Part shown: positions 698-38,213 of the stretch, one piece after another
Layout of the letters: each line of letters begins with the position of its first letter
Numbering within the stretch: position 1 is the first letter of the stretch
From: a virus
Taxonomy: Duplodnaviria; Heunggongvirae; Uroviricota; Caudoviricetes
IMG/VR virus record: IMGVR_UViG_2526164668_000029
Location: 1 to 38,213 of that record
Strand: one strand, 5' to 3'
DNA length: 38,213 nucleotides
Translations under genes and position numbers: made by a program
The notes under the pieces: model-generated
The model's input: only the letters and a program-made list of their open reading frames with translations
What the model was told of the DNA's origin: nothing
Database searches by the model: none

Positions 698-1060
698 GGG
701 GCTGATTCTGGATTCGACGGGATTTGCGAAACCCAAGGTGCATGCCGAGGGGCGGTTGGCCTCGTAAAAAGCCGCAAAAAATAGTCGCAAACGACGAAAA
801 CTACGCTTTAGCAGCTTAATAACCTGCTTAGAGCCCTCTCTCCCTAGCCTCCGCTCTTAGGACGGGGATCAAGAGAGGTCAAACCCAAAAGAGATCGCGT
901 GGAAGCCCTGCCTGGGGTTGAAGCGTTAAAACTTAATCAGGCTAGTTTGTTAGTGGCGTGTCCGTCCGCAGCTGGCAAGCGAATGTAAAGACTGACTAAG
1001 CATGTAGTACCGAGGATGTAGGAATTTCGGACGCGGGTTCAACTCCCGCCAGCTCCACCA
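698..1060 (+). ncRNA. ssrA: tmRNA (transfer-messenger RNA, SsrA)
   Basis: Starts GGGGCTGATTCTGGATTCGAC, contains the tag reading frame gcaaacgacgaaaactacgctttagcagcttaa (ANDENYALAA-stop), ends with the tRNA-like GGTTCAACTCCCGCCAGCTCCACCA; 363 nt. Confidence 0.95.
1015..1060. repeat. prophage attachment-site direct repeat (ssrA-proximal copy, the last 46 nt of ssrA)
   Basis: atgtaggaatttcggacgcgggttcaactcccgccagctccacca occurs here and again, identically, at 34499-34544. Confidence 0.85.
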
Positions 1061-1183: not shown

Positions 1184-1666
1184 ATGGAAGAACTTCACTT
1201 TGTTTACATCAATGCAAATGGTCGTATCGCTGTTCACTCTATACAGAGCATCAGTTATAGCGAAAATCATATACAGGGCATTTGTAAGAACACCGATCGA
1301 ATAAAAACCTTCCGAAAAGACCGCATTCTTAAACAGTACGATTCACCAGAACAAGCCATTCAGGAATGCGCGTCATTCCTCCCCGAAAGCTACTCACATC
1401 TCACTAAGCAGTCTGGTCCGAAAAAAAATACATTCGATGTGTGTTTCACCGGATTTAAGAAAGCAGATAAAGAAAGATTGGTTGATAAGGCGAATGAACA
1501 AGGATTAACGGTAAGAACCTCTATAACCCAAAGCCTTCAGATGCTCTGTTGCGGTTACAATGCAGGCCCATCAAAAGTATCGGCAGCCAGGATGAAAGGC
1601 ACAATCATCATAGATGAGCCTGGCTTTATACATTTTCTTGAAACGGGTGAGATCCCAGATGAATAA
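1184..1666 (+). CDS. hypothetical cargo protein with a BRCT-like C-terminal domain and a possible WYL-like N-terminal domain
   Basis: 160-aa ORF, visibly AT-rich against the flanking phage genes. C-terminal stretch VCFTGF...LTV...CCGYNAGPSKVSAARMKGTIIIDEPGF resembles the BRCT domain of NAD-dependent ligases. N-terminal ...HIQGICKNTDRIKTFRKDRI resembles the end of a WYL domain (weaker). Confidence 0.65.
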   Translation: MEELHFVYINANGRIAVHSIQSISYSENHIQGICKNTDRIKTFRKDRILKQYDSPEQAIQECASFLPESYSHLTKQSGPKKNTFDVCFTGFKKADKERLVDKANEQGLTVRTSITQSLQMLCCGYNAGPSKVSAARMKGTIIIDEPGFIHFLETGEIPDE

Positions 1667-1979: not shown

Positions 1980-3080
1980 TTATTCCATTTCAAGATCATC
2001 AATCTTCACTTCGAGTTCAATACTGGTTGTAAAACCGTTATTCGGGCTGACGGTATGTGTCAGAGTCGTAATGGTCCATTCCGCATCATCTATCGGCTGT
2101 TTAAAACCACTGACCTTCACAGGCATTTCCGTGTAGAGATCTGCCCGCCCTTCTGCCAGTTGTAGCGAAAATGACGCAACGCCGCGTTGCAGGCGTTCCC
2201 ACTGCATTTTCGCCGCTCGTTCGGCGTTGCTCCGGTTGGCATAAGTGCGATTAAGTACCAGCACGTTTTCATCCGTACCCACCAGGTAATCGCCCTGCTT
2301 CGCTTCTGGCTCTTTCTTCTGCTTCTTAGTTCTGCGCTTACGCTTCACCGTGGTGCTTTCTTTCTTCGCAGGTTCGCGGGTATGCAACCAGCTGGCAATT
2401 ACGCCCGTGTAGGCTCCGCGATCTGCCAGGGTAAATCGGTGACTGTCGCCGTCCTTGCGTGTGATAGTGATCACTGGCAGAGGTTTACCAGTGGCGCTTT
2501 TGCCCTGCCCCTGCCGGATGAATAACAGATTGCCATTTTTCACCGACGCGATGGCACCGTACTGTCGCGCCAGCCGCATCAGAAAACTGCCGTCACTCTC
2601 ATTAGTCTGGTCTATATGCTCCACGGGCTTATCCGACAGGTCTTTACCCAGTGCCATCTTCAGCTTGTGCCGCGCGGCTATTTCCTTCACCACTTCCCCG
2701 ACGGTGGTCTTATGCCACGATTTTTCACGGCGGGTATTCAGCGTTTCCCGAAAATCAGCACTTCGCGCCCGGATAGTCAGGCGGTCCGGTGCGCCAGTGT
2801 GTTCAATCTCGTCCACTGTGAATGCCCCTTTCGGGAAAAGCGGCTGCCCCTTCCAGCCCAGCGCCAGCGTAATAACCGCACCACGGCGCGGCAGCACGAT
2901 TTTTCCGTCAGCGTCATCCAGCTCCAGATCAAGCTGGTCCGCTTCAAAGCCCCGGTTATCCGTCAGCGTCAAACTCATCAGGCGGTTATCCAGCACAGTG
3001 GTGATATCCCTGCCCTCAATACTGATGCTGAATGCGGGAGTTTTGTTGCCTTTGTTAAGCAGTTCAGAGCTGAAATTCAC
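1980..3080 (-). CDS. D: tail protein D
   Basis: 366-aa ORF in the gpD position and of gpD size, directly upstream of ogr and overlapping U by 4 nt. Confidence 0.88.
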   Translation of the reverse strand: MNFSSELLNKGNKTPAFSISIEGRDITTVLDNRLMSLTLTDNRGFEADQLDLELDDADGKIVLPRRGAVITLALGWKGQPLFPKGAFTVDEIEHTGAPDRLTIRARSADFRETLNTRREKSWHKTTVGEVVKEIAARHKLKMALGKDLSDKPVEHIDQTNESDGSFLMRLARQYGAIASVKNGNLLFIRQGQGKSATGKPLPVITITRKDGDSHRFTLADRGAYTGVIASWLHTREPAKKESTTVKRKRRTKKQKKEPEAKQGDYLVGTDENVLVLNRTYANRSNAERAAKMQWERLQRGVASFSLQLAEGRADLYTEMPVKVSGFKQPIDDAEWTITTLTHTVSPNNGFTTSIELEVKIDDLEME

Positions 3081-3562
3081 GACAGCAGCCCTCCCACCGT
3101 TTTACTGATATCGCTTAAGGCAGACGTTGCCGTGTCCTGCAGATTATTCAGTTGCGCACTGAGATCACCGAACATATCGGACAGGGATTCATCCACTCGT
3201 TTGAGCGACAGGGTGAACTCAATCCGGCGCGGCATACCGTCGCGGAAAAACTCCGTTTTAGTCTGATTCAGTCCCTCAATCACATACATGCCGTAAATCG
3301 TGCCGCTGCCTTCAATCAGGGGCCATGCTTTCCCCTGTTCTGCCATCTGCTCCAGTGCCAGCAACGACAGCCTGCCGCCTGTTATTTCCGGCATAAGAAC
3401 ACCGGAAAGCGTCAGCATGTCGTTTTCCGGTCCCAGAAACTGCGTGGACGGACGTCGGTTTACCCGACTGTTTGCCGCATGTCGCCAGCTGCGTTGATAC
3501 TGCAGTTCCTGATACGGAACGGTGCGCAGCATAAACACGTACAATCCCAGCACCATCATCAT
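3077..3562 (-). CDS. U: tail protein U
   Basis: 161 aa, between T and D, overlapping stop/start with both. Confidence 0.85.
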   Translation of the reverse strand: MMMVLGLYVFMLRTVPYQELQYQRSWRHAANSRVNRRPSTQFLGPENDMLTLSGVLMPEITGGRLSLLALEQMAEQGKAWPLIEGSGTIYGMYVIEGLNQTKTEFFRDGMPRRIEFTLSLKRVDESLSDMFGDLSAQLNNLQDTATSALSDISKTVGGLLS

Positions 3563-6500
3563 GCGTCGTATCCCCCCTGATCGCTGTAGTTACTCCTGGC
3601 TTTTGCCTTCAGCCTGCGTTCACGTTCATCAAGCTGGCGTGCCACCTCCCGCGCAATATCCTGCGCACTTTGTCCTGGCTGCGTCTGAATGATGATCTGC
3701 GTCGGTGCCTCAATCCGTTGAACGAGCGGCACAGTGGCTGCGCGACTCACAATTGCTTCTCCACCTTTCGCGGGAAGTGCCAAAGGGTGCAACGGTGGAA
3801 GCTCTGCTGGCGCGGCAGCAACGCCCATCATTCCGGCAACAACGGCAGCCAGTGCAGCTGTATTTCTCCGGCTGGTCACATTTGCCGGGCCGTTAACAAT
3901 TTCCGGCCCGTTTTCACCGACGATGCCAAACTGCCCGCGCGGGATATACCCGCCGCTGTCATACATCCCCGCAAAGCCATATCCCCATGATGGAAAACCA
4001 CCCGATGGCATCATCACTTTACCGTCTGCATTCACCGTCGCAGGTTGCTGACGCGTCACGCTTTCCGGCAGTTTTGCCTTTGCGGCCTCTTTACTGACAA
4101 TGCCGAGCTTCTCCAGCAACCAGGAAACGCCGGATTTCAGGGAGTCCAGCGGATGCATGACCATATTCAGCCCTTCCGCCAGTGCCTCCCCGAATCGCCG
4201 CCCCATTGCCGCTGCGCTCTGCAGTTCGGCAGAGGTCGACTTAACGGGCGTCAGCAGATCATTAAACCAGCCCCACAGCGCCTGCACTTTGTCGCCAATC
4301 CACTGGAACACGGGCTTAAGCGGTTCGAACGCTGCACTGATGGGACCTGCCGCCGCTTTGAATCCTTCCACCACGCCACCGAGAAATGCGGTGATGGGTT
4401 GCCAGTATTTCCAGACAACCAGCGCCACGCCCGCCAGTGCAGTAACCACAAGACCTATCGGACTGAGCAGAGCACCTAACAGACCAGATATGGCATACAG
4501 GGCAACGCGCAGCATCGCCAGTGGACCAGATGCCAGTACTCGCAGCACCGTGCCTGCGGCGGCCAGTCCACCGCGCAGTACCGCCAGAGGATTCATAAAC
4601 ATCACAGCAACAGCACGTAAACCGGATAATCCAGACAGCAAAAGTGCAACCGGCGCACCTGCTATAGTTTTCAGGACATTTCCCGTCAGTGATGCCGTGC
4701 GGCGCAAAGACGACAACGGCGCAGTAAGTAAACCTGCGGCGTTGCCCGATGAAGCAAGCCCGCGTCGCAGCAGTGCCAGTGGTGCGCCAGCCAGCCAGGA
4801 CAACGCGCTGCTGGTTCGAGTTACTGCTGCCGTAACGGAAGATAACGTTTTGATACCCAACACAGAGAATCCCAGACGGATCACTGCCAGCGGCCCCAGC
4901 ACTGCAGCCAGCGCCACCGCTAAGGTGCCGAGGCCGACGGTAACCGCAGCCACAACAGCCGATGCTTTCATCAGTGTGCCTGTCAGTTCCGGGTTAGCTT
5001 CCACCCAGCGACGCAACGCCCCCGTGACGCTTTTCACCGTGTACAGAATATCCATCAGCGGCTGGCGCAGCGTTTCGCCCAGGCTGCTGAAGGTGTTCTG
5101 CGCTCCGGTTTTGACCAGCAACCACTGCGCAGAAAGTGAATCCTTGTTAATGTCGGATTCTTTCTGCATGGAGCCGAGCGCATCATTGCCCGCTGTCAGT
5201 TTTAACTGACGCTGCAGTTCCGGCAGGTTGTTTGCCAGTTTCGCCGCGTCATCGCCAAACTCTTTACCAAACAACATAGTCATGGCAGACAGGCGCTTGT
5301 CCTGCGGCAGCGCGTTTACCTTCTCCAGCACGCGCTGGATGGTTCCCATCGCATCCTTCGTCATCTGCTTTTCAATCACTTCAGGATTGAGTTTCAGCAG
5401 ATTCATCCCTTCAAAGAAACTCTTGCTTTGCATGGTGGCAATGGACAATTCACGCACCATCGCGTTTGCTGCACTGGCTGCAACCTCTGGCGCAGCGCCC
5501 AGTGTCAGGAAGGTGGAACCCAGCGCCGCCGCTTTACGATAATCCAGACGGTCAGCCACACCGCCCAGACGTTGCATCACATCAATGATGTCTGCCCCTT
5601 TCGACATGGCGTTATCATCCAGATAGTTCAGCGCATCACCGAGCTGTTCAATATTGCGGGTGGGGATTTTGTAGAGCTGGGCGATTTTCCCCAGACTTTC
5701 TGACAGTTCATCCGCTGGCAGCTCAAAGGCTGTTGCCGCCTTTGCTGCCGTACTGGCGAAGGCCAGCAGGTCACGTTTCTGATCTTCCCAGCTGTCGTCA
5801 GGGTTTGCGACGTTCATGCGCGCACCACCTTCAACCAGTGCAGCGAAGTCCACCGCACCGTTTTCCATCGGCAACTGTTCGCTGGCAGCCTTGATGGCAT
5901 CCTGCATTTCATAAAAACGTGCAGTGCGGTTGCCATTATCGTCACGCAGACCATTGACCTGCTTTGCCACACCTTTCATGGCATCTTCCATGCTGGTATA
6001 GCTTTTTACTGCCGCCATCACTGGCGCACCCATTGCCAGCCCTGCAGCCGTGGTGGTGGCTCCGGCACCTGCAATACGATCACGCACCTCCAGCGAACGG
6101 GTATAACTGGCACGCGCTGCATTCATCCTGCGCTGAGCTTCCCCCAGTCGCTTCAGCCGCGCCTCCTGTTTCGAAAGTTCCTGGTTATAACGTGATGTTT
6201 CACGGGCTAAACGGGCAGTTGCTCCCGCATCGTCTTTCGCAGAAATTCCCGCCCGGTACAGTTCAGCACGCACAAGCGCCGTCTGCTGCTGCAGCTTTTT
6301 CTGGCGTTCTTCCAGGCGCTGAACAGCCAGCCGTTGACGGCCCAGAGCAACAACCTGACGTTGCGAAGGCGGCCCCATCGCTCCCAGTTCCTGACTGAGC
6401 AAATTTGCACGCTGGCGGGCATAGTTCAGCCTGTCGCCTAATTTCTGATTTTCTGCCTGCAGCTTTCGGAAGCTGTCCAGACTGCTCCCGGCCTGATCAA

Positions 6501-8959: not shown

Positions 8960-9526
8960 TCAGGGCGATTCATTGTTCTCATTCGCCGGAAATTTTCTAT
9001 AAATGGTAGAAACGCCCACATCAAAAATCAGTGCAATACGCTGTCTTGATTCTCCGGCCTCGAGTAAACGTCCAATCTGTGCCCACTGTTCGGTAGTCAA
9101 CTTAGGACGGCGTCCACCTACTCTGCCTTTAGCACGAGCTGCAGCCAGCCCTGCCCTGGTACGTTCAACTATCAGTTCGCGTTCCATTTCAGCCAGGGCA
9201 CCCATGACATGAAAAAAGAAACGGCCCATTGGGGTACTGGTATCAATACTGTCAGTCAGACTTCTGAAATTCACGCCGCGCTGGCGCAACTCTTCTATCA
9301 GAGTAACAAGATGCCGCATACTGCGCCCCAACCTGTCCAGCTTCCAGACAACCAGTGTGTCACCTGCCGATAGTGTCCTGAGCAGTTTTTTAAGCCCCGG
9401 TCTGTCGGACTTAGTACCACTGATTTTGTCCTCAAAAATCCGCTCACATCCCGCGCAGTTCAGTGCATTACGTTGCAAATCGGTGTTCTGGTCATTTGTT
9501 GACACGCGTACATAGCCAATAAGCAT
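8960..9526 (-). CDS. serine DNA invertase (Hin/Gin/Cin/Pin family)
   Basis: MLIGYVRVSTNDQNTDLQRNAL... is the Gin/Hin N-terminus with the catalytic Ser; C-terminal HTH. True start is the internal Met at 9526, preceded by an in-frame upstream extension in the ORF track. Confidence 0.9.
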   Translation of the reverse strand: MLIGYVRVSTNDQNTDLQRNALNCAGCERIFEDKISGTKSDRPGLKKLLRTLSAGDTLVVWKLDRLGRSMRHLVTLIEELRQRGVNFRSLTDSIDTSTPMGRFFFHVMGALAEMERELIVERTRAGLAAARAKGRVGGRRPKLTTEQWAQIGRLLEAGESRQRIALIFDVGVSTIYRKFPANENNESP

Positions 9527-9553
9527 GATCAATCCCCTGAATAAAAACCGGGG

Positions 9554-10102
9554 ATGATGCCAGTTAGCCATTATCTCTGCATTTTCATAAACGTTGGTTT
9601 GGGAGAAGGCTCTGCATTACCTGTTGGTGTGCCTGTTCCGTGGCCTTCAGTCACACCGCCAACAGGCTGGCTGAAATGCAACGGTGCGGCTTTTTCTGCT
9701 GAAGAATACCCGGAACTGGCAAAGGCTTACCCGACCAATAAATTGCCTGATTTACGCGGTGAATTTATTCGTGGCTGGGATGACGGTCGCGGGATTGATA
9801 CTGGTCGCGCTTTGCTTAATTGGCAGCCACACACAATTTTGGACCATGCACACTATATGGAATTATGGACAGGGGACGGACTCGCCGCAGGAAGTGCACG
9901 GGAAGGAGTAAACCCAGGAATACTGGCTACATACGGTGACGGGGGAATAGTTAAAACGGACGAACCCGGTCTTAAGGTGCCTTCCTCACTACGAGCTATT
10001 AGTACTCGTAGTGTAAAACGTTTTGGTGAAATTAGTGGAAATGTAGGTACAGAAACTCGTCCTCGTAACATCGCTTTTAATTATATCGTAAGGGCCGCAT
10101 GA
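9554..10102 (+). CDS. alternative tail-fibre C-terminal cassette, expressed only after inversion
   Basis: Downstream of the crossover motif (encoding GLGE) it reads ...LPVGVPVPWPSVTPPTGWLKCNGAAFSAEEYPELAKAYP, a typical fibre tip; the in-frame stub upstream of the crossover is not a real N-terminus. Confidence 0.65.
   Translation: MMPVSHYLCIFINVGLGEGSALPVGVPVPWPSVTPPTGWLKCNGAAFSAEEYPELAKAYPTNKLPDLRGEFIRGWDDGRGIDTGRALLNWQPHTILDHAHYMELWTGDGLAAGSAREGVNPGILATYGDGGIVKTDEPGLKVPSSLRAISTRSVKRFGEISGNVGTETRPRNIAFNYIVRAA
9583..9608. repeat. left crossover site of the invertible tail-fibre segment
   Basis: ttttcataaacgttggtttgggagaa is an inverted copy (22/26) of 11563-11588 and resembles gix/hix sites. 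Confidence 0.6.
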
Positions 10103-33351: not shown

Positions 33352-34383
33352 ATGGAAAAAAGCATTAGCACATTTATGTACCTATCCGTTTTATTAGGTT
33401 GTATATTCTTATTTATAAAATATCGACTTTATGTTCTCGATCATAGAAGCCTGTTCCAACAACCCTTGTTCTGGGCTGCAATAGGCCTACCTTTATTCAC
33501 CAGCCTTTACTTTGGTTCTTTTGTCTGGATAGATAAAATACACTCTTTTAGTCTTACAAGTCACGGTTATGAGAGATTTTTAGATATCTCGAAATTACCA
33601 TTACTCATCCTTGCATCTGCAGTACCTTTAGTTTCAATAGTAAACAACCTACACAGAACCAAACAAACAGAAAAACAGATCTCAGAGGCAGAAAGGAAAA
33701 ACAGGGTAGATTTATATTACAACCACATGAAATTTCATCTTGATTTATATAAAAAAATCGAAGGAAAAAGAATAGGCAGCTACTACCCGGTTCAGGAAGC
33801 TCAAGCTGAAGCAATCTACCAACATTTTATAAAACATCCACAAGAACTATATAGAAAAGCATACCCACAATCTACGCCTGATGATTCTCAACAATTAGAT
33901 ATTAATGAGCAATTTGTTATTGATTTACACAAATGTTGGGTAGAAATCAACGCAAGACTCAAGCAATTATCCGAGAGTGAAAATCAAATACATCCTACAG
34001 AGGAACTTTGCACAACAAAGATGAGAATATTTGTAGGAGTTATGATTATTTATGAAAAAACTTGTAAACTGTTGTGTTTAGGTGGATTTCATTATAAAAA
34101 GTCATTTGTAATAAATGATAGTTATAATAAATACCAAGTTTATTCACCATTTTATGATTTTGGCACTCTGTACGAATCACTGCAATCCTTAGAAGAGATA
34201 ACCTACGCCTTCTTGGATACTTGCAGAAATGAAGTGGTAAACTTGTACTTCCCTATAGAAGATAAAATTTTGATATATGGTGAAGGGATTCTAGAGAATT
34301 GGTTCAAGTATTCTCAGTTCTTGATCACTATAGCTTATCAACCCGCCAAGATGTCTCGCTTACCCCAGCTGAGACGCGATTGA
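33352..34383 (+). CDS. hypothetical 3-TM membrane cargo protein between int and the attachment repeat
   Basis: 343 aa, very AT-rich; three N-terminal hydrophobic helices then a soluble domain; ATG 2 nt after the int stop. Confidence 0.7.
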   Translation: MEKSISTFMYLSVLLGCIFLFIKYRLYVLDHRSLFQQPLFWAAIGLPLFTSLYFGSFVWIDKIHSFSLTSHGYERFLDISKLPLLILASAVPLVSIVNNLHRTKQTEKQISEAERKNRVDLYYNHMKFHLDLYKKIEGKRIGSYYPVQEAQAEAIYQHFIKHPQELYRKAYPQSTPDDSQQLDINEQFVIDLHKCWVEINARLKQLSESENQIHPTEELCTTKMRIFVGVMIIYEKTCKLLCLGGFHYKKSFVINDSYNKYQVYSPFYDFGTLYESLQSLEEITYAFLDTCRNEVVNLYFPIEDKILIYGEGILENWFKYSQFLITIAYQPAKMSRLPQLRRD

Positions 34384-34498
34384 TGATGGCGACATTTTGG
34401 CGGCAGAGCTTTAAAAACAGATAAAACTGTCAAACACCACATAACACTAAAGTATTGTTTTTAAACATAAATCATTATTTTTTCTGTAGTAAAAATGG

Positions 34499-34544
34499 TA
34501 TGTAGGAATTTCGGACGCGGGTTCAACTCCCGCCAGCTCCACCA
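34499..34544. repeat. prophage attachment-site direct repeat (distal copy)
   Basis: Exact 46-bp copy of 1015-1060. Confidence 0.85.
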
Positions 34545-34709: not shown

Positions 34710-35939
34710 ATGGCAAAAATCGCTAAGAAGCTCACTGACACTGAAATCAAAAGCACCAAGCCAGCCGATAAAGAAATCAACTTGTTTGACGGTGATGGTC
34801 TGATTCTACGAATCGCTCCTTTGGCGAAAGGAGGCAAGAAAAATTGGTATTTCAGGTATGCAGTACCAGTGAGCAAGAAAAGAACCAAAATGAGCCTTGG
34901 GACATATCCTCACCTTACCCTTGCAAGAGCCAGAGCCTTACGTGATGAATATCTCTCCTTTCTGGCAAATGGTGTTGATCCCCAAATCCATAACAACGAT
35001 AAGGCGAAGGCATTAAAGAGTGCTACTGAGCACACTCTCTAAGCCGTAGCGCGGAAATGGTTAGATGAGAAGGTAAAGACATCAGGTATCTCACAAGACC
35101 ATGCAGCAGACATCTGGCGCAGCTTAGAGAGAAATGTCTTTCCCGGTCTGGGTAATGTCCCTATCAATGAGATCCGACCTAAGCTCTTAAAACAACACCT
35201 TGATCCTATTGAGCAACGAGGCGTATTGGAAACTCTACGCCGTATCATTTCACGTCTGAATGAAATCTTCCGGTGGGCAGCTACTGAAGAACTTATTGAG
35301 TTCAACCCGGCTGACAACCTTGGTCAAAGATTCAGTAAACCAAAAAAGCAAAATATGCCTGCCCTTCCCCCAAGCGAATTGCCAAGGTTTATGGAATCTT
35401 TGACGAATGCGTCAATCCGGTTGGAAACACGTATGCTAATTGAATGGCAATTGTTGACATGGGTTCGTCCGGGTGAAGCCGTTCGCGCAAGGTGGTCTGA
35501 TATTGATACAACCAACAGCATTTGGAACATTCCTGCTGATTTCATGAAAATGAAAAAGCTTCACAAAGTTCCTTTGAGTAAAGAAGCTTTGCGCATCCTT
35601 GAATTAATGAAATCAATAAGTGGGCATAGAGAATGGGTTTTCCCCAGCATAAAAGCGCCTCTTAATCATATGCATGAACAAACAGCCAACGCAGCTATCA
35701 TCCGAATGGGGTTCGGAGGCGAGCTTGTAGCTCACGGTATGCGTTCTATTGCACGAACAGCGGCAGAGGAGTCTGGTAAATTCAGAGCTGAAGTTCTTGA
35801 GGCAGCGCTTGCCCACTCGAAAAAAGATGAAATTATCGCAGCATACAATCGTGCAGAATATCTGATAGAGCGACAGAGTTTGATGCAATGGTGGAGTGAT
35901 TACGTTCAAGCTCAAAGATCAAATGCTCTGGTAGCCTAA
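34710..35939 (+). pseudogene. P4/CP4-57-type tyrosine integrase interrupted by an in-frame TAA
   Basis: N-terminal part (to 35042) and catalytic part (35226-35939, HGMRS...AYNRAEY) are in the same frame, separated only by TAA at 35040-35042; the read-through translation is continuous and IntA-like. Confidence 0.8.
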
Positions 35940-35977: not shown

Positions 35978-36166
35978 ATGGAAACCCTATTCAAAGTTTT
36001 TGAAAAATTTAGTTCCAGACCACTTTTTTTTATTTTTTTCGGACTCTCACTTTGTGAATTTTTTCAGAAACAATCTGTTCTGATGAATCCATCAGCAGAT
36101 AACATCGCGAAATTATTCGCAGCCATGATATTAGTTGTTTTTTTACTTGGGGATTTGAATGGCTAA
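35978..36166 (+). CDS. hypothetical small hydrophobic protein
   Basis: 62-aa ORF with a GAAGGT Shine-Dalgarno-like sequence upstream and two hydrophobic stretches. Confidence 0.3.
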   Translation: METLFKVFEKFSSRPLFFIFFGLSLCEFFQKQSVLMNPSADNIAKLFAAMILVVFLLGDLNG

Positions 36167-36464
36167 TCTTCAAGTTCAATGTAAACCTTGAACCTCATGA
36201 TCAAGGCGATATTGGACCAACAATTGGAACGGCTACTTTAGCTGTATACTTAGTTTATGCCTTTCACTTTCTCAGTGAAAATCCTGAAGCATTAAATTTA
36301 AAGTTATTAACTAACTCTGGCTTTATATACAGCACAACTCTATTATTATTCTCATTAGAATGCATGAAGCTTAGAAGACTTAAACAAAAATAAACAACAT
36401 CATTGTGATGATAAATATAAAATAGGCATGGCGAAAAAAAATCACCACGCCTAAAATATAATAA

Positions 36465-38213
36465 TTATGGTAGCATCATTGATACATAATCCACACCAAT
36501 CCTTGAGCTATACTGAGACGCTATAGCCTGATATCTTTCTGCATAACCAGTTCTCAGTTGAGATTTAAGTTTGAGTCGGACAGGAACATTTTGCACGTTG
36601 CCATCCATATTACTTAAAAACACGGCAGAAATAATATTTTTTTCTTCGCCATCAACTGTTGTTCCATGATTCAACACCACCATATAATCAACAACAGGAA
36701 GCGTTTTATCCCCTTCGAAAATAGAGAGATATTTTCTTTGATTTTTATGCATTACATATATATATTTCGAATGTTCAGCAAATGGCAATGCTTTACTCTG
36801 ACTGGCGTTAAAAAGCTCCAGAACTTTAATGAGCCTGTGCGGACTTAATCTTACATGGTGAGGGTCGTTACCCTGAGTAGGAACCAAATCACATGCCGCA
36901 GATACACATAAATACCATTTGTTCGACTCTGTATCAAAGAAAATAGTGCCAGTAGAAATATGACCATCTTCAAAATTCTTTGAAGACAAATTCATATTTA
37001 AAGCATGATACATTTCGTGATAAGTATCATTATTTGATGGCAGATCCATTTTTGAAGAGCAATATTGGAGCAATGCAGCAACTCCGCTGTTAGCGTATTC
37101 ATTTGAATAGCTATCAAAAACACTTTTGATAAATTCATCCAGCGTATTATTATTTTTAAGTCTTTGATAAAGCTCTTCTGATAAATTACCAAATACAAAG
37201 TCAATATTTCTACATCTAATATCAGGCGAGTCTGATTTTAATATCTCATTTAACCACGCAGCTTGACCGTAATGATCGTTAGCCAAATGATTTACAAAAG
37301 ATAAAGCCTCAGCTTCGATTGCATTCTGAATTTCAGATTTTATTAACTGATAATAAGATGGTTTCCATTCAATGAGAGAATCATTGAGAGTTTGCCAAAT
37401 CCTATCTCCATCGTTTTCATGATCATCTTGAACCTTATGAAATAGGGAGACAAAGATATTACCACATTGAATCCATTTTACTCCGCTTTCATCACCCCGA
37501 ATGACATTGCCAGATGTGTTGCTAGAAATAATTGCATTTCTAGACACAGCATATTCTGCAATCATTTTTGCAATGAAGTTTTTATCCTTTTGATCCTCCA
37601 ACACAGCATCATCATGTATTAATCTTTTAATTCTTCTACAAGGCTTACTGTCTTTAATATAGGCTATTGTTTCATCTCTTGTGAGAGCTTTATTACCATT
37701 ATCATTTAAGTTCGGTAATACAACGTCTTCCCAATAACTTTGGACATCTTCATTATCGTAGTCAATGATCAAGCTGTTGATATCCAGAGCACCTTTGAGA
37801 GTCGATGATATCTGCATCCAAACCGTTTCTAAATTCTCTCTAGTATATATTACAATCATATTTAAATGATCGGAGTCTTTCAAATCTTGTAATAGTTTAA
37901 GTGTTTTATCAGGTGCATTATTATCAAGATGATAATCTACAATAATAAGATCTGATTTTCTAATCCGATCCACATCGAAATTAACAGAACCATTGTCAAC
38001 ATCACAAATCATATTTTTAGATTGAAAAAAGCTCTCAAGAGTAGCGGCTCGTTTAGATGAGTCAATTTTGTTGTAGTCTAAATCAACTTCGTTATTCAAC
38101 GCCCTGATTGATTCAGAATACGTCAGAAAATCGTCATCAATCATGACAACGGAACGAATTGCATTTTCGCAGAAAGTTTTCTGGACAAGAGAATTATAAT
38201 TTGCCACTGTCAT
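36465..38213 (-). CDS. hypothetical 582-aa protein with receiver-like (REC-like) N-terminal domain
   Basis: AT-rich ORF; N-terminus VVMIDDDF...DLIIVDYHL...NMIVIYT matches the acidic-pocket, phospho-Asp and Thr positions of a CheY-like receiver fold; remainder unassigned. Start codon sits at the window edge. Confidence 0.7.
   Translation of the reverse strand: MTVANYNSLVQKTFCENAIRSVVMIDDDFLTYSESIRALNNEVDLDYNKIDSSKRAATLESFFQSKNMICDVDNGSVNFDVDRIRKSDLIIVDYHLDNNAPDKTLKLLQDLKDSDHLNMIVIYTRENLETVWMQISSTLKGALDINSLIIDYDNEDVQSYWEDVVLPNLNDNGNKALTRDETIAYIKDSKPCRRIKRLIHDDAVLEDQKDKNFIAKMIAEYAVSRNAIISSNTSGNVIRGDESGVKWIQCGNIFVSLFHKVQDDHENDGDRIWQTLNDSLIEWKPSYYQLIKSEIQNAIEAEALSFVNHLANDHYGQAAWLNEILKSDSPDIRCRNIDFVFGNLSEELYQRLKNNNTLDEFIKSVFDSYSNEYANSGVAALLQYCSSKMDLPSNNDTYHEMYHALNMNLSSKNFEDGHISTGTIFFDTESNKWYLCVSAACDLVPTQGNDPHHVRLSPHRLIKVLELFNASQSKALPFAEHSKYIYVMHKNQRKYLSIFEGDKTLPVVDYMVVLNHGTTVDGEEKNIISAVFLSNMDGNVQNVPVRLKLKSQLRTGYAERYQAIASQYSSRIGVDYVSMMLP

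Follow-up and report, generated by a model that had tools for sequence, protein, structure and literature searches.

The right-hand end of viral record IMGVR_UViG_2526164668_000029 (Caudoviricetes), whose 38,213 nucleotides (nt) make up the window analysed here, raises the question of what a single large gene is doing beside a prophage, and whether it takes part in defence against phages. A P2-like prophage fills the interval between the full transfer-messenger RNA (tmRNA) gene, ssrA, and a second, partial ssrA copy; the gene in question, which encodes a protein of 582 amino acids (aa), lies past that partial copy. In the initial annotation, made from the DNA letters alone, the protein was described as having an N-terminal response-regulator receiver fold followed by a long unassigned region that could be an effector, as in some anti-phage systems. 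The gene is not new. It encodes an intact member of the Response_reg_2 (PF19192) or response-regulator-like (RR-like) family, which was published in 2021, and an identical protein (P0001) already carries the RefSeq name 'response regulator receiver domain [Escherichia coli]', taken from the PF19192 model. As a whole, the locus is best explained as a decayed remnant of a triad of DNA methylase, kinase and RR-like protein, a reading that is given a probability of about 0.6.

Membership of the family is seen in the N-terminal half of the protein. PF19192 is the single strong Pfam match (aa 19-175, E 3.6e-31), and a score of 109.1 bits against a cut-off of 27 places the receiver-like N-terminus far beyond a chance match. 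An AlphaFold2 model of the 582-aa protein, built on 42 homologs and with a mean predicted local distance difference test (pLDDT) score of 85, has the (beta-alpha)5 receiver (REC) fold that had been proposed, with beta1 at residues 21-25, beta2 at 69-73, beta3 at 89-93, beta4 at 118-124, beta5 at 253-259 and alpha5 at 268-283. Five residues are invariant in an alignment of 42 sequences reaching down to 24% identity: D26 and D27, an acidic pair that follows beta1; D93, where beta3 ends; T124, where beta4 ends; and K260, which follows a strand read in the model as beta5. By analogy with canonical receivers D93 is the predicted phospho-acceptor, and with a complete catalytic set the domain looks phospho-competent. 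Both beta5 and alpha5 come after a helical insertion, which is the least conserved segment (mean majority frequency 0.33; 14% identity to a distant clade). Public assemblies contain the exact 582-aa sequence in 18,949 indexed blocks.

A receiver fold with its catalytic residues in place is also what a conventional housekeeping response regulator of an ordinary two-component system would show. The canonical receiver family PF00072 gives no match at E up to 1, however, and no NCBIfam model matches the 582-aa protein. No known output domain (OmpR, NarL, NtrC, LytTR, GGDEF and so on) was recognised in it, and PDB sequence searches with the protein and two profiles returned only unrelated proteins (best E 0.2-0.4). 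The statement in the initial annotation that there is no recognisable DNA-binding output domain therefore holds across the Pfam, NCBIfam and PDB searches. In addition, the gene lies on an integrase-bearing ssrA island and occurs in only ~10% of E. coli genomes, and the partner of its product is a soluble MORC-like kinase encoded in an operon with a DNA methylase. The absence of PF00072 and of an output domain, the island location and the methylase-linked kinase together refute a housekeeping role.

The region without a recognised domain is shorter than first thought. Roughly 450 aa had been left unassigned; a long domain-less C-terminus is indeed present, but the receiver reaches residue ~283, so that the module comprises ~300 aa. 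In the models this module (aa 284-582; pLDDT 84 when modelled separately) is a helical bundle to residue 410 and then a beta-rich domain. The motifs of the beta-rich domain are GT (422-423), CVSAACDxVP (436-445), PxR (458-460), QLRxxYxxR (552-560) and RIGVD (571-575). Conservation of at least 90% is reached at 23 of its positions, the same count as in the receiver core, and many of these are polar or charged. No match to the module was found by Pfam, NCBIfam or PDB profile search, and when the C-terminal sequences of 20 members were compared with Pfam at a threshold as lenient as E 10, no family recurred. A profile hidden Markov model (HMM) search with the C-terminal region against 1.84 billion representatives returned 647 cluster representatives (50% identity). 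The architecture of receiver plus module is fixed, since nearly all of the best 150 of the 647 share it, being 560-680 aa long with the module in the same place. Judged by these 150 best matches, the module is known almost solely within this architecture.

A fold search had been suggested for the C-terminal region. Foldseek comparison of the C-terminal model with the PDB gave nothing at E <=0.001, with TM scores of ~0.1. There is a weak resemblance of the beta-rich domain to the CcdB/MazF/Kid toxin fold, at 5-11% identity and with no support from Pfam, hhalign or Foldseek; the hhalign probabilities against MazF, CcdB and Kid are all <1%. The beta-rich domain is also ~60 residues larger than this fold and has its own conserved motifs. 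With this weak likeness to toxins, the C-terminus is at most a putative effector.

Any partner genes had been expected to lie beyond the window, and this is where a partner is found. The sequence past position 38213 is taken from relatives, for which 19 of 19 E. coli contexts are concordant. In every one of these the gene next to the ATG at 38213 encodes HEF_HK (PF19191) and/or HATPase_c and stops 1 nt short of that ATG, and in 18 of them its product is a 572-aa 'ATP-binding protein' with both HEF_HK and HATPase_c. The intact system, seen in loci L004-L010, is an operon of a C5-cytosine DNA methyltransferase (DNA_methylase), then a soluble kinase of ~990 aa (~985-990 aa), and the RR-like protein as the last gene. 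The intact kinase has an N-terminal MORC-like GHKL ATPase (HATPase_c_3), a coiled region, the HEF_HK dimerisation domain with its His, and the catalytic domain HATPase_c; its coding sequence either ends 1 nt from the start codon of the RR-like gene or overlaps that gene.

The intact triads come from a range of hosts. In L004 the RR-like protein is 87% identical to that of the window, the integrase is the same and the locus adjoins smpB. L005 is from Pantoea, the RR-like protein of L006 is 25% identical, L007 is a distant relative, L008/L009 are from Acinetobacter and L010 is a paralogous triad of E. coli SE15 (NC_013654, 4542611-4548686). No recognisable nuclease gene lies within or beside the operon in L004-L007; an HNH_2-type endonuclease gene is nearby in L008/L009 and in L010. 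The products of the SE15 triad (ECSF_RS22155 / RS22150 / RS26660) are a 398-aa C5 methylase, a 989-aa ATP-binding protein and a 607-aa Response_reg_2 protein. A gene for a 290-aa 'phosphorothioated DNA-binding restriction endonuclease' comes next, and the element that carries them also encodes ArdC and a MobH relaxase. This paralogous intact system, at another site and at 72% identity, is present in 212 complete E. coli genomes. A 195-aa open reading frame (ORF) upstream of the methylase was dropped as a core component, being 49% identical between L004 and L005 but not conserved in L007 or L010.

The domains of the intact triad suggest how it might work. The methylase would mark host DNA, and the MORC-like ATPase end of the kinase may engage DNA and report that which is foreign or unmarked. 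The kinase core would then autophosphorylate on its own histidine and hand the phosphate to D93. Phosphorylation of D93 could free the conserved C-terminal beta-rich domain to act as an effector, either nucleic-acid-directed or toxin-like, a step that is proposed because many such operons have no other nuclease. An effector role of the module is tentatively favoured over that of a transcription factor, at somewhat short of even odds, because there is no detectable DNA-binding domain, several operons are free of nucleases and the conservation of the beta-rich domain is like that of an active site. A bolder form of this proposal, which is considered unlikely, makes the triad a new, self-contained kind of restriction-like immunity system, its restriction arm being a His-Asp phosphorelay. 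In it the MORC-clamp kinase would sense unmarked DNA and phosphorylate D93, and a so far unrecognised beta-barrel effector (CcdB/MazF-like fold, C-x4-C-D, Q-x-R-x2-Y-x2-R) would cut or poison nucleic-acid metabolism; the sensor-less E. coli remnant would then possibly still be firing.

The RR-like protein could instead be a regulator, its phosphorylated C-terminal module binding DNA or RNA polymerase and turning on methylase, restriction or other genes. Such a role has been proposed for two-component modules beside restriction-modification (R-M) systems, and control of R-M systems was speculated for RR-like elements when the family was described (PMC8011034). In the Ambrosia cluster of Pseudomonas aeruginosa (bioRxiv 10.1101/2025.09.30.679545), reporters in place of abrA or abrD were induced on infection and a winged helix was assigned to the receiver protein AbrC. 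The separate HNH_2 or other nuclease of some loci (L008/L009, L010) also fits a regulator. However, homology of AbrC (209 aa) to Response_reg_2 was rejected (hhalign probability 0.2%, no PF19192 match), the operons of L004-L007 offer no nuclease to control, and the invariant C, D, Q, R and Y of the beta-rich domain would seem to resemble an active or binding site rather than a generic DNA reader. Regulation is thus regarded as a less probable function of the module than that of an effector.

The copy of the system in the E. coli island is broken: a deletion abutting a copy of the insertion sequence (IS) IS3 has taken away the methylase along with the N-terminal 380 residues of the kinase; a C5 methylase is present near the RR-like gene in L004-L010 and absent from the island. 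The E. coli kinase ORF corresponds to residues 381-991 of the 991-aa L004 kinase, with 88% identity. Its frame is open right to the IS3 terminal repeat, and translation has been annotated from a Met that in the intact protein is internal, at residue 420. None of the 19 E. coli copies retains more of the kinase than residues 381-991 or has the methylase; they usually adjoin IS3, and in one of the 19 (L024) only 67 aa of the kinase are left, beside IS1. Past IS3 there is a truncated, ygaQ-like amylase pseudogene and then glaH. The same kinase/amylase junction is found with IS3 missing in L011 (2013C-4361; 9469..9594, corresponding to 25536..26913 of L001), and the joint bases differ, being CGC in L011 and IS3 followed by AGATAAC in L001. 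Either an IS3-mediated deletion was followed by loss of the IS, or the deletion came first. Among the complete E. coli genomes there is none with the methylase and the 5' part of the kinase of this allele.

The RR-like gene is present in 560 of 5426 complete E. coli genomes (~10%), 559 of these copies being at least 99% identical, and the carriers include the O26, O103 and O111 lineages and E. coli W. Variation was assessed between the window and 13 other E. coli alleles (14 in total), a small sample chosen to include the most divergent matches. Among the 13, the gene is frameshifted in two (L012 and L019) and interrupted in one (L020; 2015C-3163, 2001..5062), where an IS3-family element (IS1203-like) is inserted at codon 454. 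The interrupted form matches a protein cluster, P0008, of 1605 member sequences, whose representative is a truncated form of 453 aa. This suggests that a disrupted allele is common in draft assemblies, some Shiga toxin-producing E. coli (STEC) strains carrying it. Single nucleotide polymorphism (SNP) sites across the 14 alleles number 3 synonymous and 6 non-synonymous in the RR-like gene; for the kinase remnant the counts are 0 and 4, respectively. Non-synonymous sites therefore make up 10 of 13, a ratio that is close to the neutral expectation and indicative only, the sample being small and deliberately spread. A promoter scan round the IS3/kinase junction was uninformative, with no enrichment relative to shuffled sequences.

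Because the operon has lost its 5' end, its methylase and the sensor ATPase, and because disruption is recurrent, a working system is unlikely. The E. coli locus is probably non-functional, and the RR-like gene most likely survives as an orphan, a slowly decaying remnant without a working function. Several points weigh against this explanation of the protein, its system and the locus. Phosphotransfer from the partner kinase, which is not known for any Response_reg_2 protein, DNA sensing and the effector role are predictions. What lies past 38213 comes from relatives, and the SNP ratio comes from a divergence-weighted sample. Speaking against a dead remnant, the RR-like ORF is intact not only in the window but also in 10 of the 13 other alleles, and the allele is widespread, in about one in ten complete genomes. 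The core of the kinase, with its dimerisation and histidine phosphotransfer (DHp) and catalytic (CA) domains, the tight coupling of the two genes and the terminator have all been retained. A transcription-regulating role of the receiver protein is, in addition, favoured by the authors of both PMC8011034 and the Ambrosia study (10.1101/2025.09.30.679545).

The retained features would also fit the alternative that the two-gene remnant is a working module, kept by selection as a constitutively primed or differently triggered toxin or defence pair. Both ORFs are open in the lineage of the window and in most alleles, the DHp His box and HATPase_c are kept, as are the 1-nt gene spacing and the terminator, and the range of lineages carrying the gene is wide. 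Such a module would, however, have lost the native 5' end of its operon with the promoter region, along with the methylase and the N-terminal ATPase domain, and would depend on a kinase whose annotated start is internal to the intact protein. Frameshifts and IS insertions recur in the RR-like gene, the excess of non-synonymous sites is near that expected under neutrality, and the promoter scan offers nothing in its favour. The wide presence can be accounted for by recent shared descent, given the near identity of the copies. Selection for a working pair is therefore quite improbable, and the locus continues to be best seen as the decayed remnant of a triad.

The surroundings of the gene bear out its placement in a second ssrA-associated island. 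The partial ssrA copy, which has an Rfam match and shares an exact 45-nt direct repeat of the ssrA 3' end with the full gene, is a marker both of the former island boundary and of the right-hand attachment site of the P2-like prophage. Past it the gene order is a P4-type integrase, a small hydrophobic ORF and the 582-aa gene (Table 1). In agreement with the initial annotation of the latter as the only large gene of the island fragment, it is the sole ORF of more than 240 aa between the partial ssrA copy and the end of the window in the ORF listing. Its stop codon is at 36465-36467 and its ATG begins at the final base of the window. The integrase has the Pfam domains Arm-DNA-bind_3, Phage_int_M and Phage_integrase in the L001 copy; in the window it is interrupted by a nonsense change (CAA -> TAA) at 35040, which is unique to the window in comparison with three other strains. 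The small hydrophobic ORF has a 1-nt deletion in a T7 run at 36137, also unique to the window among the four strains compared. The deletion could be a sequencing artefact, which is less likely for the substitution. This small ORF has no Pfam or PADLOC match and is not regarded as core to the system because it is absent from the intact relative L004. Beyond it is a terminator-like hairpin with a 12-bp stem containing 6 G-C pairs, followed by TTTTATATTT; it begins 11 nt past the stop codon of the 582-aa gene and marks the end of the operon.

Table 1. Features of the window, with positions counted from its first nucleotide
Feature	Position	Strand	Basis or remark
Full tmRNA gene (ssrA)	698..1060		45-nt repeat at 1016-1060
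160-aa ORF, first after ssrA, prophage left end	1184..1666	+	
469-aa ORF just after portal gene, P2-like prophage	23915..25324	-	PADLOC PD-T7-1
P2 replication gene A, split	26232..28647	-	Phage_GPA
343-aa ORF between P2 integrase and right attachment site	33352..34383	+	
Partial ssrA copy	34368..34544	+	Rfam tmRNA, 52 bits; 45-nt repeat at 34500-34544
P4-type tyrosine integrase of island, pseudogene in window	34710..35939	+	409 aa in other strains
Small hydrophobic island ORF, broken in window	35978..36394	+	138 aa in other strains
Terminator-like hairpin	36413..36453	-	Terminator scan on L001 22055..22025, mapped onto window
Complete coding sequence of 582-aa Response_reg_2 (RR-like) protein	36465..38213	-	ORF listing; PF19192
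Beta-rich C-terminal domain, aa 411-582, closing helix 555-565	36468..36983	-	Candidate effector domain
Helical bundle, aa 287-410, ending in conserved HALN motif (H403-N406)	36984..37355	-	AlphaFold2 models, conservation
Receiver (REC) domain, aa 19-283	37365..38159	-	AlphaFold2 model, alignment
Helical insertion, aa 141-237, between alpha4 and beta5	37503..37793	-	AlphaFold2 helices 145-226
D93 codon, predicted phospho-acceptor	37935..37937	-	Motif SDLIIVDYHL, C-terminal end of beta3

The prophage itself carries several genes of interest. The site after the portal gene is a known P2 cargo hotspot, and in the window it holds the 469-aa ORF, which has no Pfam domain and matches PADLOC PD-T7-1 near end to end (E 1.3e-196). 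The same slot holds a retron Ec67 reverse transcriptase in WP3-S18-ESBL-09 and a HIRAN-domain gene pair in A41. Neither Pfam nor PADLOC gave a match for the 343-aa ORF, which runs at its end into the partial ssrA copy. Since other strains hold different genes in its place, of 309 or 401 aa, the prophage seems to have a second variable cargo slot there. The 160-aa ORF has no Pfam domain and a weak partial match to the PADLOC candidate PDC-S48 (E 4e-07, covering the last 70 of 411 model positions). One extra T in a T-run at 26932 divides replication gene A, which is an 804-aa gene in L001, into ORFs of 579 and 273 aa. The extra T may make the prophage defective in replication, or it may be an error of sequencing in a homopolymer.

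The window itself is of little weight, containing a member of a published Pfam family in a broken copy of its system. The family is worth experiment, being widespread, as the number of cluster representatives indicates, and tied to DNA methylases on mobile islands. Its main interest is the conserved 300-aa C-terminal module, to which no function has been assigned. How the system relates to those already described is considered below.

The closest of these are the Response_reg_2/HEF_HK elements themselves. PF19192, HEF_HK and the linkage between them were described in silico by Bellieny-Rabelo, Pretorius and Moleleki in 2021 (PMC8011034), with 91.6% adjacency of RR-like to GHKL/HEF_HK genes over 644 regions. 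In that study the soluble kinases were related to paraMORC ATPases, R-M genes, especially C5 methylases, Vsr and HNH_2, were enriched near the family, and the C-terminal region of the RR-like proteins was left as 'no known domain', its ~300 aa not being analysed. The locus described here agrees in its receiver followed by a long domain-less region and in the adjoining partner with HEF_HK and HATPase_c, and its orthologous loci have the C5 methylase and N-terminal HATPase_c_3 as in PMC8011034, where an R-M neighbourhood is a statistical association and no strict criterion of the family. The E. coli copy differs in lacking the methylase and N-terminal ATPase, through the deletion abutting IS3. 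With HEF_HK and HATPase_c only it would fit 'group 2' of PMC8011034, yet here this arrangement is a truncation product and not a native variant. Kinases of the 'HEF_HK + HATPase_c only' type can thus be IS-truncated pseudogenes instead of a natural variant.

The paraMORC GHKL ATPases of R-M operons were described by Iyer, Abhiman and Aravind in 2008 (PMC2292703). The N-terminal HATPase_c_3 of the partner kinase is like these in that it is found in operons with cytosine methylases on mobile islands. The 2008 families differ in having ATPases joined to helicases or nucleases, with no histidine-kinase core or receiver partner described; the word 'receiver' occurs 0 times in PMC2292703. The paraMORC-type layout, with HATPase_c_3 beside a methylase, is found in the relatives, and both components are deleted in the E. 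coli island.

Detocs, reportedly described by Rousset et al. in 2023, is said to consist of a TPR-kinase, DtcA, a stand-alone receiver, DtcB, and DtcC, a receiver with a PNP (or other) effector. The logic would be the same, in that a kinase senses infection and phosphorylates a receiver fused to an effector. The triad differs in being without a buffer receiver, a TPR sensor and a nucleoside-phosphorylase effector, and in having a methylase and a MORC-like ATPase. No second receiver gene, TPR or PNP domain was found at the locus, and it is not assigned to Detocs. PADLOC, in a release that may not include Detocs models, gave no significant match for the RR-like protein or the kinase, the hits being noise (E 0.003 for the former and 0.026 for the kinase remnant). 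DefensePredictor includes an unvalidated candidate with HATPase and REC, which may or may not belong to the Response_reg_2 family. The link to immunity suggested in the initial annotation is plausible for the family, through its C5 methylase operon and Ambrosia, but the system is neither Detocs nor another known one of this kind, and this copy of it is wrecked.

The Ambrosia cluster protects P. aeruginosa from phages and comprises AbrR (XRE), AbrA (N6-adenine methylase), AbrB (GHKL/kinase), AbrC (a 209-aa receiver) and AbrD (HNH nuclease); its defence is lost in AbrC D60A and AbrB N40A (10.1101/2025.09.30.679545). It shares with the triad the clustering of a receiver gene with genes for a DNA methylase and for a protein that is both GHKL ATPase and histidine kinase. 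The intact kinase has a distant homolog in AbrB (27% identity, E 2e-10), and the RVxPYG segment is collinear between these two proteins. The two clusters differ in that AbrA is an N6-adenine methylase and the triad has a C5-cytosine methylase, in that AbrC has a weak match to canonical receivers and is without the 300-aa module, and in the separate HNH nuclease and XRE regulator of Ambrosia. Genes for an HNH nuclease, an N6 methylase or an XRE regulator are lacking from both the E. coli island and L004-L007, and these loci are not placed in Ambrosia. A link of the family to immunity is plausible because the intact relatives share an operon with a C5 methylase and because the Ambrosia cluster is protective. 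In light of this phage-protective cousin, the intact triad of SE15 and 211 other complete E. coli genomes is a reasonable candidate for a phosphorelay-driven, restriction-like defence.

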